Source: a virus. From it: a stretch of DNA of 64,000 nucleotides. The notes beneath the pieces are model-generated. The model saw only the letters and a program-made list of their open reading frames with translations, had not been told where the DNA came from and did not search any database. The stretch lies in IMG/VR virus record IMGVR_UViG_3300036770_001423, positions 1 through 64,000 of that record. One strand, written 5' to 3'. Of this stretch, positions 11,725 to 37,097 are shown one piece after another; the stretch's first letter is position 1; each line of letters opens with the position of its first letter. The position numbers and the translations under genes were made by a program.

Positions 11725-12536
11725 TAGAAATTACACTCCCATACAGCCCCTGTCCATGTAAATACAAAACGGGAATTTGTGTCTAATACAAAAGAATCAT
11801 AATCCGCCACATCAACGGCATTATTACCCACTCTAATTTGTTCCGTAGAAATGTTATTACACTGAACTGTTACTACATTACCGGATGCTTTGTATACTTC
11901 TACTTTACTACCGGCAGCTAAGCCAGAAGTGGAAGGTAATGTCTGAGTAGTGTTACTGGTAACAATATTATTCTCACCAACAATCAATGCGCCAGAAGTA
12001 GATAATACTTTAGCAAGACTAAACATCTGCTGAACAGTTCTGCCACCAGTTGTATCAATAGATGACGCTGGGTGAGCGTTAGGCTCAGTACGGAAGGTTA
12101 ACCCTCTGTGGTCAAATGCAGGAGCATCAGAATTGATTACAGTTGTCATTGTAGTGTTATCAAGTTTCACCCTGATAGTACCTACATATGTAAAACCATA
12201 TTCTGTTGTTGGTGTTTGAATTACTTGGTTATTGATTGTACCATAAGCAATCAAAGCACCAGTATTATCATAGATACCCACTTCACGTAATGTTACACCA
12301 CCAAACGTTCTTGGGATATATCCACTTACTGCAATCACTGTGGGGTCTGCGGTATCTTTAATTGGATTAGAGCAATTAACTCTAATCACTTCATTCACCA
12401 GAGATGTTCTGGTAGGGTCAACGGTAGGTAGAGAACCACTACCGTCACCAAATGCCATACTTAAAAGAGTAACAGGTGCCATCGGAGTGGCTACTAATAG
12501 TTTACTTCTTCCAGTATTTGTTAAAATTGTAGCCAT
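11724..12536 (-). CDS. Tail fibre protein with N-terminal tail-collar domain
   Basis: ILTNTG..MAFGDGSG..LVNEV..TLREVGIY baseplate-attachment domain. Confidence 0.85.
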   Translation of the reverse strand: MATILTNTGRSKLLVATPMAPVTLLSMAFGDGSGSLPTVDPTRTSLVNEVIRVNCSNPIKDTADPTVIAVSGYIPRTFGGVTLREVGIYDNTGALIAYGTINNQVIQTPTTEYGFTYVGTIRVKLDNTTMTTVINSDAPAFDHRGLTFRTEPNAHPASSIDTTGGRTVQQMFSLAKVLSTSGALIVGENNIVTSNTTQTLPSTSGLAAGSKVEVYKASGNVVTVQCNNISTEQIRVGNNAVDVADYDSFVLDTNSRFVFTWTGAVWECNF

Positions 12537-19133: not shown

Positions 19134-19750
19134 TATTTCGCCCCCGTGATAGCATCGAAGTCAGGTTCTTCGATGGCGTTACCTGTCAGATAATTATACC
19201 CTGCCCTTCCCGCTGTATATTCAATGCCGGATTTACTACCGTTATCTTTCTTGCCCGATAAACCATCTTTTGTTGAAGCTGATGCGTTATCTGTACTGTC
19301 AGTTGTCTCTCCAGCTACTTGAACTAAAGAAGCTTTAGCTTTATCAACAATCTTGATTTGTTCAATTGACATACTAATACGCCAACTACCAAGACCTTCA
19401 ACAACACCTTTCTGTCCACTGAAGTCTGTGAACAAACAATTCTTATATGGAGACAAACGGTTGTCTAAGAACACAGTAAATAGTTCACGAGATTTACGTA
19501 GTGTATCCAATCCTTGGATATAATCCTTGATACCTTTCTGTGGAGAGTTCTTAGTAAGATTGACGACTTCAGTTATTACGCCAGATAATGTAAACGTAGA
19601 ATTTTCAACAACAGAGTGGTCTGTAACAGAAGCCCCCGACTCAACGGGGAACTTCGTATTAGTGTTTCTGTGTTGAAACCCTACATCAGTAGTGGCGGTT
19701 AGTTCAAAGACATCGCCAGCTTTTGTCTTGATGTAGAATACAGCCATCAT
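19133..19750 (-). CDS. Tail tube initiator (Dit-like)
   Basis: TKFPVESGASVTDH motif directly after tape measure. Confidence 0.8.
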   Translation of the reverse strand: MMAVFYIKTKAGDVFELTATTDVGFQHRNTNTKFPVESGASVTDHSVVENSTFTLSGVITEVVNLTKNSPQKGIKDYIQGLDTLRKSRELFTVFLDNRLSPYKNCLFTDFSGQKGVVEGLGSWRISMSIEQIKIVDKAKASLVQVAGETTDSTDNASASTKDGLSGKKDNGSKSGIEYTAGRAGYNYLTGNAIEEPDFDAITGAK

Positions 19751-20793
19751 CTAACTCCTACTGATTGTAAAGCGCCGTAGTTGTCCATAACTTTCTTGCT
19801 TTCCTCACCAATGCGACGAATCTGTTCATCATTGACATCACCTTGAATGATGATTGTTTGATTAAACATCATATCGTATGCAGACTTAGCTAGGTTGACA
19901 GGGGCTTGTAGCATCTTCTGGTAACTATCTAAAAAGTTAGCCGTTGCTGGCATAGCTTTCTTAGCAGCAGCAACACGTTCTTCCCCACTCATGGCGGCAC
20001 CAAATAAGTAAGAACCAATACCACCTGACTCCCTCTGCGCTGCCATTATCTGCTCACTGCTGAACTTAGACAAGAACTTCTTATCCGCTTCATTTCCGAA
20101 GCCAGCTCGAACACGAGCCTGTGCTGCTGCAATATCTCTACTTTGTTGTGAAGCTTTATCACTTTCCCCTACGCCAATTAAATTGGAATCAAAGATTGCT
20201 CTAACTTCATCAATAGCTGCCAACATACCTGTAATCATGGCAAACGGTGTTTTAAGCGCCATCATCAAAGCTCTACCGAAACCAGCAGCCAACGGTATCA
20301 GTGTCCTAAAGCTTGCAGCGATACCAACAGCAGCAATTGACATCGCTGCCATAGGGTTATCAGCACCCCATTTCATTACTTTCCACAGCGTTTCTAAAGA
20401 ACGAATAAAGAAAGTAATTGCAGGCGTCACTATGTTACTAATAACGTAACCTATTGCTCGGAAAACTTTATCATAAATACGACCAATGCGTTCTAAAGCT
20501 ATCCCATTATTACCTAAAGTGTCTGTCAAGTTTTTGAATAACTGTGCAAGACCTTTATTGTACCCACTGTTGAATACTTTGTCCTGAGCAAGCTGTAACT
20601 CGTTAGTGAATTGACCTTGCGCTACACGAACACTGTTTAATTTTGCCTCTAACGCACCACCGGCACTAGACATTAACTTCATTTGCTTAGCAACTTTAGG
20701 TAACGTGTCTACCGCCATTAAGTTACCAGCTTCCATTAACTTGAACATTTCAAGTTCTGTCATACCTAAAGCTTTAGCAAATATTTGTACACC
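19747..20793 (-). CDS. Tape measure protein, exon 2
   Basis: Begins GVQIFAKALGMTELEMFKLME after intron terminal G20794; spliced protein about 803 aa. Confidence 0.9.
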   Translation of the reverse strand, partial: GVQIFAKALGMTELEMFKLMEAGNLMAVDTLPKVAKQMKLMSSAGGALEAKLNSVRVAQGQFTNELQLAQDKVFNSGYNKGLAQLFKNLTDTLGNNGIALERIGRIYDKVFRAIGYVISNIVTPAITFFIRSLETLWKVMKWGADNPMAAMSIAAVGIAASFRTLIPLAAGFGRALMMALKTPFAMITGMLAAIDEVRAIFDSNLIGVGESDKASQQSRDIAAAQARVRAGFGNEADKKFLSKFSSEQIMAAQRESGGIGSYLFGAAMSGEERVAAAKKAMPATANFLDSYQKMLQAPVNLAKSAYDMMFNQTIIIQGDVNDEQIRRIGEESKKVMDNYGALQSVGVR

Positions 20794-20924
20794 CGTTTTG
20801 TTCAGGAGCGGTCGTTACTCACTCCCCGCTTTATTCAAGCTGCTGCATGTTTCCATGCAGACCAGACTATATCATCATCTCTATAAGATGCTTATCATTT
20901 CGAGTTCACTTGAACCCTACTCCC

Positions 20925-21629
20925 TTATGGGATAGTCGTTGAGCACAATACCAATTCGTTATATAATTCTTTATGTGTTTTACCTGAGGTGATATTTGCT
21001 ACATGGTGCCTGTTTATCTTACCACCAAATTCAGCAATTATTTCCTTAGTTGTTTTTCCAGAGATAAACATTAAAAGTACTTTTCTGACATCATCTTCAG
21101 TCAAATATTTTCTTGGTAAGTTAAACTCATAATCATTAGATATGTGAGACCAAGACTGTTTACTCTTAATTGAATATACTGTTGATTTATTTAAACCGGT
21201 AATTTTGCAAATTTCCATAATCTTCTTACCTTCACACAGAAGACTACATACTTGCCTTACCGTCTCATCACTAATGGTTGCCCTATATCCCAACCTACCA
21301 ATCAACATATTACCAAACTCAATACCGTGTTGGTAATTCCCTTTAGGGGATACCCACTCAAGATTCTCAATAGAATTGTTACGTCTATTTGAATCTTTAT
21401 GGTTAACTTGAGTAAGTGTTGTTGGATCTGTATTTTGGATAAACACAATAGCTAACGCTCTGTGTACATAACAACCTTTAGTTTTCTTTTCAACAGGGCA
21501 CCATACCTTGATTCTCAAATACCCGTCTCTGTCTGTGTATGGTGTTAATTTATTCAATGTGTAGCTGGAATAACAATTCCCGTCAACGTCTATAGACAAG
21601 AATTCATAATCTTTTACTTTATATAACAT
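20925..21629 (-). CDS. Intron-encoded HNH homing endonuclease
   Basis: VHRALA..VNHKDSNRRNNSIENLEW HNH motif and two C-terminal HTH-like repeats; SD GGAGG; 3' end overlaps intron P7. Confidence 0.9.
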   Translation of the reverse strand: MLYKVKDYEFLSIDVDGNCYSSYTLNKLTPYTDRDGYLRIKVWCPVEKKTKGCYVHRALAIVFIQNTDPTTLTQVNHKDSNRRNNSIENLEWVSPKGNYQHGIEFGNMLIGRLGYRATISDETVRQVCSLLCEGKKIMEICKITGLNKSTVYSIKSKQSWSHISNDYEFNLPRKYLTEDDVRKVLLMFISGKTTKEIIAEFGGKINRHHVANITSGKTHKELYNELVLCSTTIP

Positions 21630-21726
21630 GTTGCCTCCATTTAGGAGGATTGGCATCTTCGCTGCGGATTGTCCAATCCTGACAAATTTTTACTATACTT
21701 GCAATAGTTAATTGCAACCCCACACT

Positions 21727-21755
21727 ATATTACTATGTATGGTTAGTATTGTCAA
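21727..21755 (-). promoter_or_regulatory. sigma70-like promoter inside the intron, upstream of the HNH gene
   Basis: TTGACA-17 nt-TAATAT. Confidence 0.55.
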
Positions 21756-21823
21756 GCTCTAAGGAGTTTCCCGCATTAGATAAGTTTTCTGTATACATTG
21801 CTGTATACAGGGGCTTTCTATAA

Positions 21824-23188
21824 ACCCGGCATTGATTCTGCGAATTGCAAACGCAACTCCTCACTGGAGATGCGGGTTTTACTCATCATCTGCTGAATAG
21901 CATTGAATGCTAACTTCATTTTCTCTTGTGATAAGCCTAACACTGTACCAAGCTCAGACATATTAGTGAATAGTTCTTCAATCTGAGTATTGGTTAATTT
22001 ATCTTTAGCGGCAAATTTAAACTTGATGTATTGATCCGCAATATCTTTTACACTCAAACCTAAACGTCTTGACAAATCAATCAAGAACTGCATTTGCTGC
22101 TTAGCGTCTGACGTATTACCTGTTGCGGCAAGCATAGCAGAGTTTAAAGCTTCAAATGATTGACCTGTTTGGTTGATGGCACTTGTACCAGCAAACAAAG
22201 CATACAGACTCGCGTACTCTCGTACCATGTTGCGTGTAGAGTCCTGTAAACTGCTCATTGCAGCAGCAGCACCCATACTATGTCTACGCTGTTTCTCAAG
22301 CTCATGGTTCATCCTAGACAGTTCTTTTGTCACTGTTCTAAGCTGATCTATGTTACCTGAAGCAATAGCTGCATCAATCTTAGCACCGCCAAGGGGACGA
22401 TAACGTTCTACATCTCTTGCTGCACGAACAAACGCATCAGCACCTTTCTGTGTAGTTTGTTTCTGAGCGCCTTGAAGTAATGAAGCTTGTTGCTGAGATG
22501 TGTAGTTCTGAAAACCACCACCCTTCTTAATGGCATTGAATGTATTGTTTGTAGCAGTACCTGTTGGACCAGTCATCAGTGTGGCTACACGAACATTAGA
22601 TTCTTTCAAATCTCTGTTCAGTTTAATTACACTAGCACGAATCGCTTTAATCTTTTCTAATGAACCCCCACGAGCCGCTTGTCTTGCTGACAATAAAGCC
22701 TGCAATGCTTGTTGTCTTCCTTCAGGACCACTAGACTTTAAATCACGGAAAGCTTGTAAATTAGTAAGAGTACCCAACGACCTACGTTTACGTAAGCGCT
22801 CATTGGCAATGCCGAGAGCAGACTGGTCGGACTGCATCTTACGATAGTAATTACCCATAGCTTTGAGCTGAGGGTTTACTTCAGGATTGATTAATGCACG
22901 AACAGCTTGTTGACGTTTAGCGGATTCAATAAAACTTTTATCAGCAATCTTTTTACTTTCTTTAGCTGACTTTCTTTCAATATCTTCTTTCTTCTTAGCT
23001 GTTGTTTCAGCAACCTTCACAGCGTTATCGGATATTTGCTTCTCAGCTTTTAATCCATTCTTAACACGTTTAGCGTCTACTCCAACAGCTAACTTTTCTA
23101 ACGATTTGTGTAAATCTTGAATTTGAGATTTAATCTTTGATGTATCAAACCCCAAGCTGACAAGAAAATCTTCAATTGGGCTGGACAT
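21824..23188 (-). CDS. Tape measure protein, exon 1
   Basis: IEDFLVSLGFD N-terminus, helical Ala/Lys-rich body, tape-measure domain QMMSKTRISSEELRLQFAESMPG. Confidence 0.9.
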
Positions 23189-33883: not shown

Positions 33884-34987
33884 TTATGAATTAAGGTCAT
33901 ATTGCGCTTTGATTGTGGGATCGTTGAGAGCGGTTAGTTTTGGGACTGTGTAGGTTTTGATTGTATTCAATGCGTTTAGGGCTGAGGCTGCGCAGTCGGC
34001 TACGTCATCCTTGTACCGCTTTGTGCTACGCTCCCCTGAAAACTGTTCTAGACTTTGTAGATAAAATTCCAGTGTCGCAGCATCAAATGTGCTTGCTACA
34101 ATCTTGACTAGACCATTCTCACAAGCAGAAGCAAAAGGAGCAAACTTTGTCATCTTAGATTTGTTACTCGGCATAGGATCTGCTTTAACAACATAACCTT
34201 TACCTATTAATTTCTTAGAAGACTCAATGAACTCATACTTACCTGCCGCAGAAGGATCTTTTGGAAAGATTATTGTAACATCAGTGCCGTCATGTGCTGC
34301 TTGTAGCTCTATGAGGTTATCTCGCTCACCTACAGTCTTTCTAACTACTCCGAGAACTTTACTGTCTGGATCTTTAAAACTTGGGTGAAAGTCGCCAAAG
34401 ATATAGTAATAACCCTCTTTATCTTTAGCCATACCTATCTGTGCTGTGTAGTCTGGACTTGGTTCTTTGTCTGAAGGCGCAGTTCCTGCTTTATCATAAG
34501 CCCTAACGCATTTTGCACCAAGAGGAATCTTGTCAGCAATAGCACACCACTTTCTATCGAAGTACAAGCTATTAGAAGGGCGTACTTTCCAGTTACCATC
34601 CAACAATCTCGCTCTGTCGATAGGGTTCAAACCTTCCAACCATGCTAAATAATCAGGGTTCTGTTCTAGCATCTTAGGGTTGTCCCTAATTGTGCTACCG
34701 ATAAAACTGAAACTGATTGGTTTTACGTTATCACCATATGTAGCTTTTAATTCTTCTGGCGTATCTGCCCAGAAGTATTGACCGCCTTGTAAAATGAACC
34801 AGCGTATTACACCAGCCCTTTCTTCGATAGGGAAACCTTCGTCATCTAACCACCAAGAAATCATCTCTGCTATCTTGTGGTCGGGATCAGGGTTGCAACT
34901 GATCACCATTCGTGAAGGGTATTTGGACTCGGAACGCATCCGAGACATCAGATATTCTATTTGTGACCAATCGAATTGCGTACCTTC
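33884..34987 (-). CDS. terL: Terminase large subunit, exon 3
   Basis: Starts EGTQF; SCNP coupling motif, RAYDKA and DDVAD nuclease residues. Confidence 0.92.
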   Translation of the reverse strand, partial: EGTQFDWSQIEYLMSRMRSESKYPSRMVISCNPDPDHKIAEMISWWLDDEGFPIEERAGVIRWFILQGGQYFWADTPEELKATYGDNVKPISFSFIGSTIRDNPKMLEQNPDYLAWLEGLNPIDRARLLDGNWKVRPSNSLYFDRKWCAIADKIPLGAKCVRAYDKAGTAPSDKEPSPDYTAQIGMAKDKEGYYYIFGDFHPSFKDPDSKVLGVVRKTVGERDNLIELQAAHDGTDVTIIFPKDPSAAGKYEFIESSKKLIGKGYVVKADPMPSNKSKMTKFAPFASACENGLVKIVASTFDAATLEFYLQSLEQFSGERSTKRYKDDVADCAASALNALNTIKTYTVPKLTALNDPTIKAQYDLNS

Positions 34988-35237
34988 CGAAGTGTTCAAT
35001 AAGGTTCGTTAATCCTTACCAGCAGCACTACCTGCTTCTGCATGTCGCCATGCAGACCTGACTATATCATCACCCCATTAGGGTGTCTCCCGTTTCCACT
35101 CACTTGAGTGTACGCCTTTCGGCTAGTCGATGAACGTTCTCCGTTAGGAGCTTCGCTGCTGATTGTCTCTGTGAGAGTTCCCAGCAATTAGAGAGATTAT
35201 TCGACACATATTACTACGTGAAGCGACTATTTTACAA
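34988..35237 (-). mobile_element. Group I intron 2 of terL (250 nt, no ORF)
   Basis: P1 CGAU/GUCG; P7 GACUA (35124-35128) / UAGUC (35060-35064); terminal G34988; splicing restores Walker B IAFD-E. Confidence 0.93.
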
Positions 35238-35537
35238 ATCGAACGCAATGAATGTATACTGTAAGCCTTGGTGATTGTACTTGTCTTTTTCTGTCTCCAT
35301 GTGAGACCATTTCATTTTAAAACCAGTAGGAAACTTAGCTTCTAATGAATGCTCTGACATACGAGGACGGAGTTCTGTGGGTAGCTGCATATACATATTA
35401 CGTGCAGTATCAAATACGCCACCAAGACCTTTGATTTGAACTGTTGTTCTGCGGAATACAATTGCGTTTGCTTTTGGGTCATCTACATAAAGCAAAGGGA
35501 GCATTTGTAATAGGAAACTTTTGCCGGAACCGGCTGC
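35238..35537 (-). CDS. terL: Terminase large subunit, exon 2
   Basis: AAGSGKS..FRRT..QGLQYTFIAFD, exactly 100 codons. Confidence 0.92.
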
Positions 35538-35779
35538 CAAATATTATGTAGTCGCTACACTACTCTGCCTTTTCAAGCAGGATCGGGTCATATCTTCATC
35601 CCAGAGGGAGTCTACCGTTTCGGATAATCAATCGCTTATTACCCTACGCCCTGACAAGGGCTGACCTCCACACACGCCATTACGCTTGGCTCGGTATTAG
35701 CATAGAGCGTAGCCCCTTAGCTTTCACCGAATTAGATAGATTCTTAGATACACATTACTGTGTTCTGTGGCGCAAGTTC
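35538..35779 (-). mobile_element. Group I intron 1 of terL (242 nt, no ORF, variant P7)
   Basis: P1 GUGGU/GCCAC; P4 CGGU/ACCG; P7 GGUCA (35662-35666) / UGACC (35586-35590) after AAGAUA; terminal G35538; splicing restores GG-AAGSGKS. Confidence 0.9.
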
Positions 35780-35945: not shown

Positions 35946-37097
35946 CTAATCTGGCGTAATATACTTTAACAATATGTCTAATACAAGACTGAAGTCTTTA
36001 CGGTGGAATGTCTCTGTATAACCAGAACCCATTTCTTGTTTTGTAATTATACCTCTTTCGATACCAGAAGATATAATCTCACTCTCAAGTTTGCGTATAA
36101 CGTACCCATCAGGGTTCTCAAGATAGTATATTACAGATAAGGGGTATTTACATTTCTGTTGTATCTGCTTTAATCTTTTATCTAAATTATTCGTTATACC
36201 AAATTTCAGCACATCGTCAGTAACTTTCAATAAATAAAAAGTACCTCCCATAGTGCTTCTATAACCAACCCTTTGATTCGAGCATCTAGGGCAACCAGCG
36301 GCATAAAGATGACTGTTAGGTGCTTGAGAAAACACACCGTGATCTCTGCATATGATGTCTATCTTAGTATGTTGATTTTTGTAATCAACTAATGAATAGT
36401 CATATTTATCACCATGCACTTTCTTAGCTAATGATATGTATTCTTCTGTTGTGAACTTAAACATCTCTGCTTTAGCTAGTGAAGCACACTTAGTACAACC
36501 AATTGTAGTTAAATGGTGATCAGCCCTTTGAGTGACTACGCCGTGTAACTTACATTCGTATGTAATATACTTACTCTTACCAACATACTCAGTAATAGAG
36601 TAGTCATATTTATCCCCATGAACTTGTTTTGCTTTTTCTACATATTGTTCTTTACTAAATACTCTACTTTTAGAGTTATTGACAGTAGCACAAGATTTGC
36701 AACCAACTTTGCCTGCTGTATGTCCTGACAGTTCTTGTCTAAATACTCCGTGGTCAGGGCAAATAATATCTACAATATCTTTAACTTTGACATTATCGGG
36801 TATAAGACTATAATCATATTTACCGTTATGGGCGCATGTTGCTTTATCAATAAAGTACTGCCTAGGTTTTCTGGTAGCTTCTGCGATCCTTTCTTTGGCG
36901 CAGAGCTTACACCCATGTCTAGCGGATGTGTGACTGTTTGGGGTCACTTCAAATACAAAGTCGTGCTTAATACAACGAACTTTAACTTTATTACAGGCTT
37001 TAGTGTAAACAGACAAAGAATAATCATACTTATCTCCGTGAACACTTCTAGCTTTAATGATAAACGTTTCTAAATCTTCTATTTCGTGCTTTGCCAA
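35946..37097 (-). CDS. Free-standing endonuclease: four zinc-binding repeats plus C-terminal GIY-YIG-like domain
   Basis: Four HG/HNxKYDYS..C..H..H....GC..C repeats; FYLL..KFGIT..R..E..GYTE nuclease domain. Confidence 0.8.
   Translation of the reverse strand: MAKHEIEDLETFIIKARSVHGDKYDYSLSVYTKACNKVKVRCIKHDFVFEVTPNSHTSARHGCKLCAKERIAEATRKPRQYFIDKATCAHNGKYDYSLIPDNVKVKDIVDIICPDHGVFRQELSGHTAGKVGCKSCATVNNSKSRVFSKEQYVEKAKQVHGDKYDYSITEYVGKSKYITYECKLHGVVTQRADHHLTTIGCTKCASLAKAEMFKFTTEEYISLAKKVHGDKYDYSLVDYKNQHTKIDIICRDHGVFSQAPNSHLYAAGCPRCSNQRVGYRSTMGGTFYLLKVTDDVLKFGITNNLDKRLKQIQQKCKYPLSVIYYLENPDGYVIRKLESEIISSGIERGIITKQEMGSGYTETFHRKDFSLVLDILLKYITPD

Follow-up and report, generated by a model that had tools for sequence, protein, structure and literature searches.

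Introns in the tape measure protein (TMP) genes of phages are already known. In Vibrio phage ICP1 the TMP transcript was found by RNA-seq and RT-PCR to comprise four exons along with three introns (Barth, Dunham and Seed 2023, PMC10448857), and the TMP gene was termed a "frequently interrupted gene". The middle intron usually encodes a homing endonuclease gene (HEG) of the HNH-3 type, with a different HEG content in one isolate, and in terL, the terminase large subunit gene of this phage, a T5orf172 HEG adjoins the N-terminal exon (PMC10448857). In prophages of the Bacillus cereus group, the group I introns IVS1-3 occupy three positions of the TMP gene (Tourasse and Kolstø 2008, PMC2504315), and in cluster J mycobacteriophages capsid and tail genes contain introns that are spliced out (PMC3706429). 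The present analysis concerns a 1030-nucleotide (nt) insert in the TMP gene of an uncultivated marine myophage with a 94-kb genome close to Myoalterovirus, represented by IMG/VR record IMGVR_UViG_3300036770_001423. The window analyzed comprised positions 1 to 64,000 of this record. The insert, which carries an HNH HEG, is very probably a functional group I intron, the removal of which gives a TMP of 803 amino acids (aa). The initial annotation had regarded a TMP gene as a less usual intron host; this does not agree with the cases documented for ICP1 (PMC10448857) and the B. cereus-group prophages (PMC2504315).

The TMP gene is located on the minus strand. Exon 1 (21824..23188), recognized by its open reading frame (ORF) and by Pfam and PHROG matches, comprises 455 codons and ends with ...ESMPG, while exon 2 (19747..20793), recognized by PHROG and tblastn matches, starts with GVQIFAKALG and comprises 348 codons and the stop codon. 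The ORF containing exon 1 (21818..23188, 456 aa) continues from ...FAESMPG with one intron codon (L), followed by a TAG stop, so that the unspliced message terminates at the second intron codon, as had been stated initially. This ORF matched the Pfam family TMP_3 (PF20155) with 60.4 bits (cut-off 41), and the match spanned profile positions 3-121 of 192, breaking off at the end of the ORF. The PHROG profiles for TMPs resumed in exon 2 where exon 1 left off: phrog_2335 matched with positions 188-609 and then 610-883, phrog_4036 up to 376 in exon 1 and from 378 in exon 2, and phrog_18891 up to 384 and from 387. In tblastn searches exon 2 matched TMPs of marine myophages. Joining of position 21824 to 20793 gave an 803-aa product reading ...SSEELRLQFAESMPG/GVQIFAKALGMT (the slash marks the junction; junction region ...FAESMPG/GVQIFAKALGMT), and the predicted junction of the ligated exons in the RNA is ATGCCGGGT/GGTGTACAA. 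The 803-aa product was 45% identical (2e-96) to the uninterrupted TMP of Alteromonas phage vB_AmeM_PT11-V22, and this alignment was ungapped across the junction (...LAESLPGAIQIFAR...), as was that with the uninterrupted TMP of Vibrio phage K408 (...LGEVLPQGIQLMAD...). In the tblastn alignment with PT11-V22 the exon 1 match stopped at 11765 and residue 2 of exon 2 began at 11769, leaving one codon between them. Judged by these comparisons, the two ORFs are collinear halves of one TMP. The intron interrupts the most conserved TMP segment, the Pfam TMP_3 domain, and both the position of the junction after ESMPG in this domain and the length of the protein were as first proposed.

The strongest evidence for the junction came from close relatives without the intron. 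Three IMG/VR contigs (L011, L012 and L013) encode TMPs that are 94-96% identical in protein to that of the window. Contig L013, with about 88% nucleotide identity, lacked exactly the 1030 nt in question (in blastn, query position 1365 abutted 2396). Because the L013 allele joins the end of exon 1 to the start of exon 2, the insert extends exactly from 21823 to 20794, the limits originally assigned to it. The TMP gene of L011 was likewise uninterrupted. The precise lack of these 1030 nt in L013 puts the insert far beyond chance. In L012, the TMP of which was 96% identical to that of the window, the gene contained an intron of its own of 1042 nt, located 20 nt upstream of the window site (CAGU/U..., after the first base of codon 449). 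About 150 nt at the 3' end of the L012 intron were 84.5% identical to the window intron. The guide of this intron is GCUG, fitting the exon end CAGU, where the window intron has GCCC, and its HNH gene is a different one, with 27% identity to the window HEG. From these sequences the L012 insert is read as a related sister intron with a retargeted guide and a different HEG. Two Pseudoalteromonas phages, J2-1 (MF370964) and H101 (KR534323), contained introns at a site identical to that of the window (CCGGGU/U ... AACG/G).

A further difference among these alleles was observed in the N-terminal part of the TMP gene. In L011 (1251-1455) and L013 (260-464), about 36 nt of exon 1 at window positions ~22934-22970 were replaced by about 203 nt, making this part roughly 170 nt longer than in the window (blastn, approximate boundaries). 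This length polymorphism would predict slightly different tail lengths.

The group I intron (20794..21823, minus strand) was delimited by Rfam half-matches, by the intron-less alleles and by covariation. An Rfam scan of the whole window at the gathering threshold detected only the terL intron described below and none at the TMP site. In a permissive scan of a 1.4-kb region, two half-matches to RF00028 were obtained. The first (21565-21833, 22.6 bits) covered P1 to P6. The second (20843-21088, 40.6 bits) covered J6/7, P7, P3', P8 and P9, with the near-consensus GAUGAUAUAGUC...UGCAUGGAAACAUGCAG and a strong fit of J8/7-P7-P9 to the Rfam consensus. The endonuclease ORF falls between the two half-matches, and the score remains below the gathering threshold because this 0.7-kb ORF in P6 splits the model.

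All helices of the core were located by hand, in the canonical order P3-P4-P6 and P7-P8-P9 with P3 and P7 crossing; P1, P4, P7 and the terminal G at 20794, which had been named in the initial annotation, were all present. The 5' domain (21657..21827) contains P1 to P5 and the start of P6. In P1, the exon end GGGU (21827-21824) and the intron bases UU pair with the guide AAGCCC (21816-21811), the last base of exon 1 being the U of the U.G pair at the splice site. P2 (21810-21789) is formed by CUGUAUAC and GUAUACAG, and P4 by UGCGGG (21775-21770) and UCCGCA (21668-21663). P5, a short helix, is extended by a long branched arm, and P6, which spans both domains, holds the endonuclease ORF. The 3' domain (20794..20945) contains P6', P7, P7.1, P7.2, P3', P8, P9, P9.1 and P9.2. 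P7 is formed by GACUA (20937-20933) and UAGUC (20869-20865), and the two hairpins P7.1 (UCCC-AUAA-GGGA) and P7.2 (GGGUUC-AAGU-GAACUC) lie between P7 and P3'. P3 joins 21784-21779 in the 5' domain to 20896-20891 in the 3' domain. P9 (20859-20844) has a GAAA loop, and P9.2 (20825-20805) is a further hairpin. The intron tail reads ...UGAACAAAACG, ...AAAACG and ends with the omega-G at 20794; this boundary was set by L013, and ...AACG/G was kept in J2-1 and H101. With the P7.1 and P7.2 hairpins and the P9.1 and P9.2 extensions, the architecture is IA2-like.

Covariation was evaluated in two alignments of the window intron with those of J2-1, H101 and L012 (four sequences), A1 covering the 5' domain and A2 the 3' domain. 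In A1, 84% of the cells were paired, 18 pairs were changed on both sides and none of 500 shuffles was as good, while slid controls reached 33-52%. In A2, 91% of the cells were paired and 9 pairs were changed on both sides, with slid controls at 30-45%; no shuffle out of 500 was as good in paired cells or covariation score, and two were as good in doubly changed pairs. P7, P7.2, P8 and P9.2 were 100% paired in A2 and showed compensatory changes (one compensatory pair in P7.2), those in P9.2 being found in J2-1, H101 and L012. P1 was retained in J2-1 and H101; its one compensatory change was from UU/AA to UA/UA. P3, compared by eye across A1 and A2, paired in all four sequences (CUUAUC/GAUAAG, UCUAUC/GGUAGA, CCUAUC/GGUAGG and CCUUUU/GGAAGG). 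The figures, coming from four sequences, are supportive and fall short of statistical proof. Together with the exact intron-less allele, however, the covariation makes a very strong case for a group I intron.

The HNH homing endonuclease gene (20925..21656, minus strand; longest ORF 243 aa) lies in the P6 loop and was identified by Pfam, PHROG and PDB matches, in agreement with the endonuclease first assigned to the insert. The product matched Pfam HNH_3 with 30.4 bits (cut-off 24.8) and phrog_59 at 2e-39. A C-terminal DNA-binding module was represented by a match to HTH_7 (25.8 bits, cut-off 23.8), while HTH_23 was just under its cut-off (24.4 versus 24.6), both at about residues 127-166. The ORF also matched I-HmuI (E=8e-8; PDB 1U3E), an HNH enzyme that nicks DNA and is encoded by the intron in the SPO1 DNA polymerase gene. 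The motif VNHxD..NN...NLE...N..H was invariant across five TMP-intron endonucleases, those of the window and four others. The real start of the gene is likely to be the ATG at 21629 (234 aa) instead of the first ATG at 21656, as judged from the GGAGG Shine-Dalgarno sequence located five bases in front of it and from the agreement of the N-termini with those of J2-1 and H101. This Shine-Dalgarno sequence is part of a predicted hairpin, formed by CCUCC/GGAGG in the window and by AUCUCC/GGAGAU in the relatives; the z-scores were modest in each of the three sequences (-1.5 to -2.4). By analogy, the hairpin suggests a translational restraint of the endonuclease from unspliced precursor; in the gene of T4 I-TevI the Shine-Dalgarno sequence is reportedly sequestered in a hairpin as well. 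The 3' end of the ORF overlaps P6', J6/7, P7 and P7.1, and its stop codon is located in the P7.1 loop.

From these features we infer the following course of splicing, endonuclease action and translational control. On folding of the late structural transcript, GGGU at the exon end would be bound by the guide GCCC, and a U.G pair would form at the splice site. The first attack, by exogenous guanosine, would take place after 21824, and the second, by the freed exon end, after the terminal G at 20794, joining the exons in one 803-aa frame. In mixed infections, TMP alleles that lack the intron may be nicked or cut by the HNH product close to the site of insertion and would acquire a copy of the intron during repair (homing). 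Translation of the endonuclease from unspliced precursor is probably limited by the Shine-Dalgarno hairpin.

Several points weigh against a functional intron. The phage is uncultivated, and the evidence is that of its DNA sequence. The whole intron scored below the Rfam gathering score (40.6 and 22.6 bits versus 50), and a P10 pairing with the 3' exon was not evident. P9.1 was out of register among the sequences, with 50% of its cells paired. The covariation counts rest on three or four sequences, and the 5' half of L012, which was poorly aligned, was the source of most unpaired cells in A1. We nevertheless consider it very probable that the group I intron is functional and that an 803-aa TMP results.

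The alternative that survives best leaves splicing intact and concerns only the endonuclease, which might no longer be an active homing enzyme, so that the intron would be a resident, vertically inherited element. The HEGs of related TMP introns were 27-37% identical to that of the window, compared to about 73-85% for the ribozyme parts, and ORF-less introns occur in the same gene segment of PH357 and L067; together with the HEG divergence this indicates that turnover or loss of HEGs is common here. On the other hand, the window ORF is full length, retains all invariant residues of the HNH motif and has its own GGAGG Shine-Dalgarno sequence, and the close relatives at about 88% nucleotide identity differ in the presence and site of the intron, which implies recent mobility. 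A resident element is regarded as unlikely.

Far less probable is a gene in pieces, in which the insert stays in the RNA and the TMP is made as two separate polypeptides that associate non-covalently. Exon 2 has an in-frame ATG 10 codons from its start (ORF 19747..20763), and annotation pipelines call the TMP of relatives as two genes; as had been foreseen for automated annotation, split coding sequences (CDSs) are found in the GenBank records of J2-1, H101, PH357 and ICP1. This ATG, however, has no convincing Shine-Dalgarno sequence, and the break lies inside the conserved TMP_3 domain. A complete ribozyme core kept by compensatory changes would be senseless without splicing, and the homologous gene of ICP1 is demonstrably spliced (PMC10448857). 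Slightly less credible still is a 3' splice site at G 20843, directly after P9, in place of 20794. The Rfam alignment ends with ...CAUGCAG at this position, and the terL intron of the window ends likewise. Joining at 20843, however, would lead to a stop after three codons (CAG CUU GAA UAA), in the intron-less allele of L013 the entire sequence as far as 20794 is missing, and the extra 49 nt fold into P9.1 and P9.2, the latter kept by compensatory changes. An intein was rejected on account of the in-frame stops and the RNA core in the insert, and a free-standing HEG between two genes on account of the exact collinearity and the intron-less allele.

The source record has 94,296 bp with direct terminal repeats and is estimated to be complete. 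The genes flanking the TMP gene follow the order annotated for the loci of K408 and PT11-V22 (sheath, tube, chaperones, TMP, baseplate hub and spike), so that tail chaperone genes lie on one side of the TMP gene and baseplate genes on the other. The genome contains at least one further solid group I intron, located in terL (window positions 35038-35257, minus strand), which is ORF-less and matched RF00028 with 83.1 bits (E 1e-19). It is flanked by the ORFs 35232..35540 and 33884..34999 and parts the Walker-A-bearing N-terminal exon from the C-terminal exon; its 3' core was about 90% identical to that of the TMP intron over 39 nt. Directly upstream of the split terL, a 383-aa ORF (35946-37097, minus strand) contains four repeats of a Cys-pair/HGDKYDYS module. 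If this ORF were a T5orf172/GIY-YIG-like free-standing nuclease, the layout would be that of ICP1 terL. The 94-kb genome may contain a third or fourth intron of group I, as suggested by a sub-threshold match to RF00028 at 1131-1387 on the plus strand (43.9 bits; E 2.5e-11 for this genome).

The introns at the identical site in J2-1 and H101 resemble that of the window in having the guide GCCCC, lengths of 1046 and 1047 nt and a like architecture with an HNH gene in P6. Their 5' domains were 73-78% identical to that of the window intron, while their HEGs were only 33-37% identical to the window HEG. Unlike that of the window, the TMP genes of both phages contain further introns upstream. The HNH gene of H101 is annotated as 'Phage intron', yet no spliced TMP is annotated, and the same-site introns of both phages have been unreported. 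In a low-stringency tblastn search for mini-exons most matches were noise, and only the strong ones were used.

The crowding of these TMP genes with group I introns was also seen in the Rfam matches, of which five were found in H101 (about 1.8 kb; L005 498-2997), three in J2-1 (L002 1226-2997) and three in HM1 (L004 1895-2994). The TMP exons of H101, J2-1 and HM1 are deposited as separate hypothetical CDSs or are unannotated. The number of TMP introns in H101 may exceed the three of ICP1.

One TMP intron of HM1 is located one codon upstream of the window site, and that of PH357 near codon 440. The site of the L012 intron is also used by the ORF-less intron of L067, which belongs to a more distant TMP, and by our reading of the ICP1 sequence it would correspond to the site of the third TMP intron of that phage. 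The conserved TMP segment is an insertion hotspot for introns. As near-isogenic alleles have no intron (L013, L011), an intron at PG/G (window) or an intron 20 nt upstream (L012), a single ribozyme lineage may be hopping within the hotspot of roughly 15 codons in TMP_3, changing guides and swapping HNH genes, a reading to which we tentatively give somewhat less than an even chance. If it is true, this phage group provides a natural system for the acquisition of new sites by group I introns, either through reverse splicing or through altered specificity of the HEG.

When viral contigs were searched for AATCCGCAGCGAAGA, the P4'/P6 motif, 87 DNA stretches were obtained, nearly all of them apparently outside TMP genes; the TMP loci found were only L067, J2-1 and H101. 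As TMP loci were so few among the 87 stretches, the motif is generic to this intron class. When the locus was compared by megablast with 50,697 phage records, the sole match was an identity of 40 nt to the terL regions of Pseudomonas phages KIL1-3. The KIL1-3 phages were rejected as relatives, the match being a shared intron core.

The stretch at 20840-20879 of the window (P7-P9 core) was 100% identical to positions 20522-20561 of KIL1 (KU130126) and to the corresponding stretches of KIL2, KIL3 and KIL3b. In these Pseudomonas syringae phages it is annotated within the CDS of the terminase large subunit, and its sequence suggests that their terL genes contain a group I intron of the same family that has escaped annotation.

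For annotation, the TMP of the window phage should be given as one spliced product of 803 aa, not as two genes and a free-standing HNH gene, and a like correction is due in the deposited records of J2-1, H101, HM1 and PH357. The three allelic states in close relatives allow gain, loss and retargeting of the intron to be compared on a small scale. As the splicing of the ICP1 homologues was demonstrated earlier, no new question is opened; another lineage is added to the published picture of the conserved myophage TMP core as a preferred landing site of group I introns and their endonucleases.

One of the closest known systems is found in ICP1. The ICP1 TMP is homologous to that of the window (31-33% identity), its introns interrupt the same conserved segment, and its HEG is also of the HNH-3 type, with 28% identity to the window HEG. 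Over about 100 nt (positions 68-169), the window intron shared 74% identity with the 5' domain of the HNH-bearing TMP intron of ICP1, the three TMP introns of which are detected by Rfam. The hairpin in the 3' tail and a UGAAC motif are similar in both, and the ICP1 genome also has a split terL. However, ICP1 possesses three introns and two mini-exons where the window phage has one TMP intron, and according to our reading of its sequence the insertion sites in ICP1 are 7-15 codons farther upstream, at about residues 441-449 by the numbering of the window TMP, and none is at PG/G. The lineages differ as well, ICP1 being a Mohonavirus of 126 kb and the window phage, with 94 kb, being close to Myoalterovirus. 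The B. cereus-group prophages share with the window phage the presence of group I introns in the TMP gene at several alternative positions, but are, likened here by description, siphovirus-type elements of Firmicutes with TMPs of over 1200 aa. The phage IA2 introns with HNH or GIY-YIG HEGs, namely those of T4 td (I-TevI) and of the SPO1 DNA polymerase gene (I-HmuI), share the P7.1 and P7.2 hairpins and the ORF looped out of P6, and the window HEG is homologous to SPO1 I-HmuI. Whereas the hosts of the T4 td and SPO1 introns are genes of nucleotide metabolism or replication, the host gene in the window phage is a structural one.

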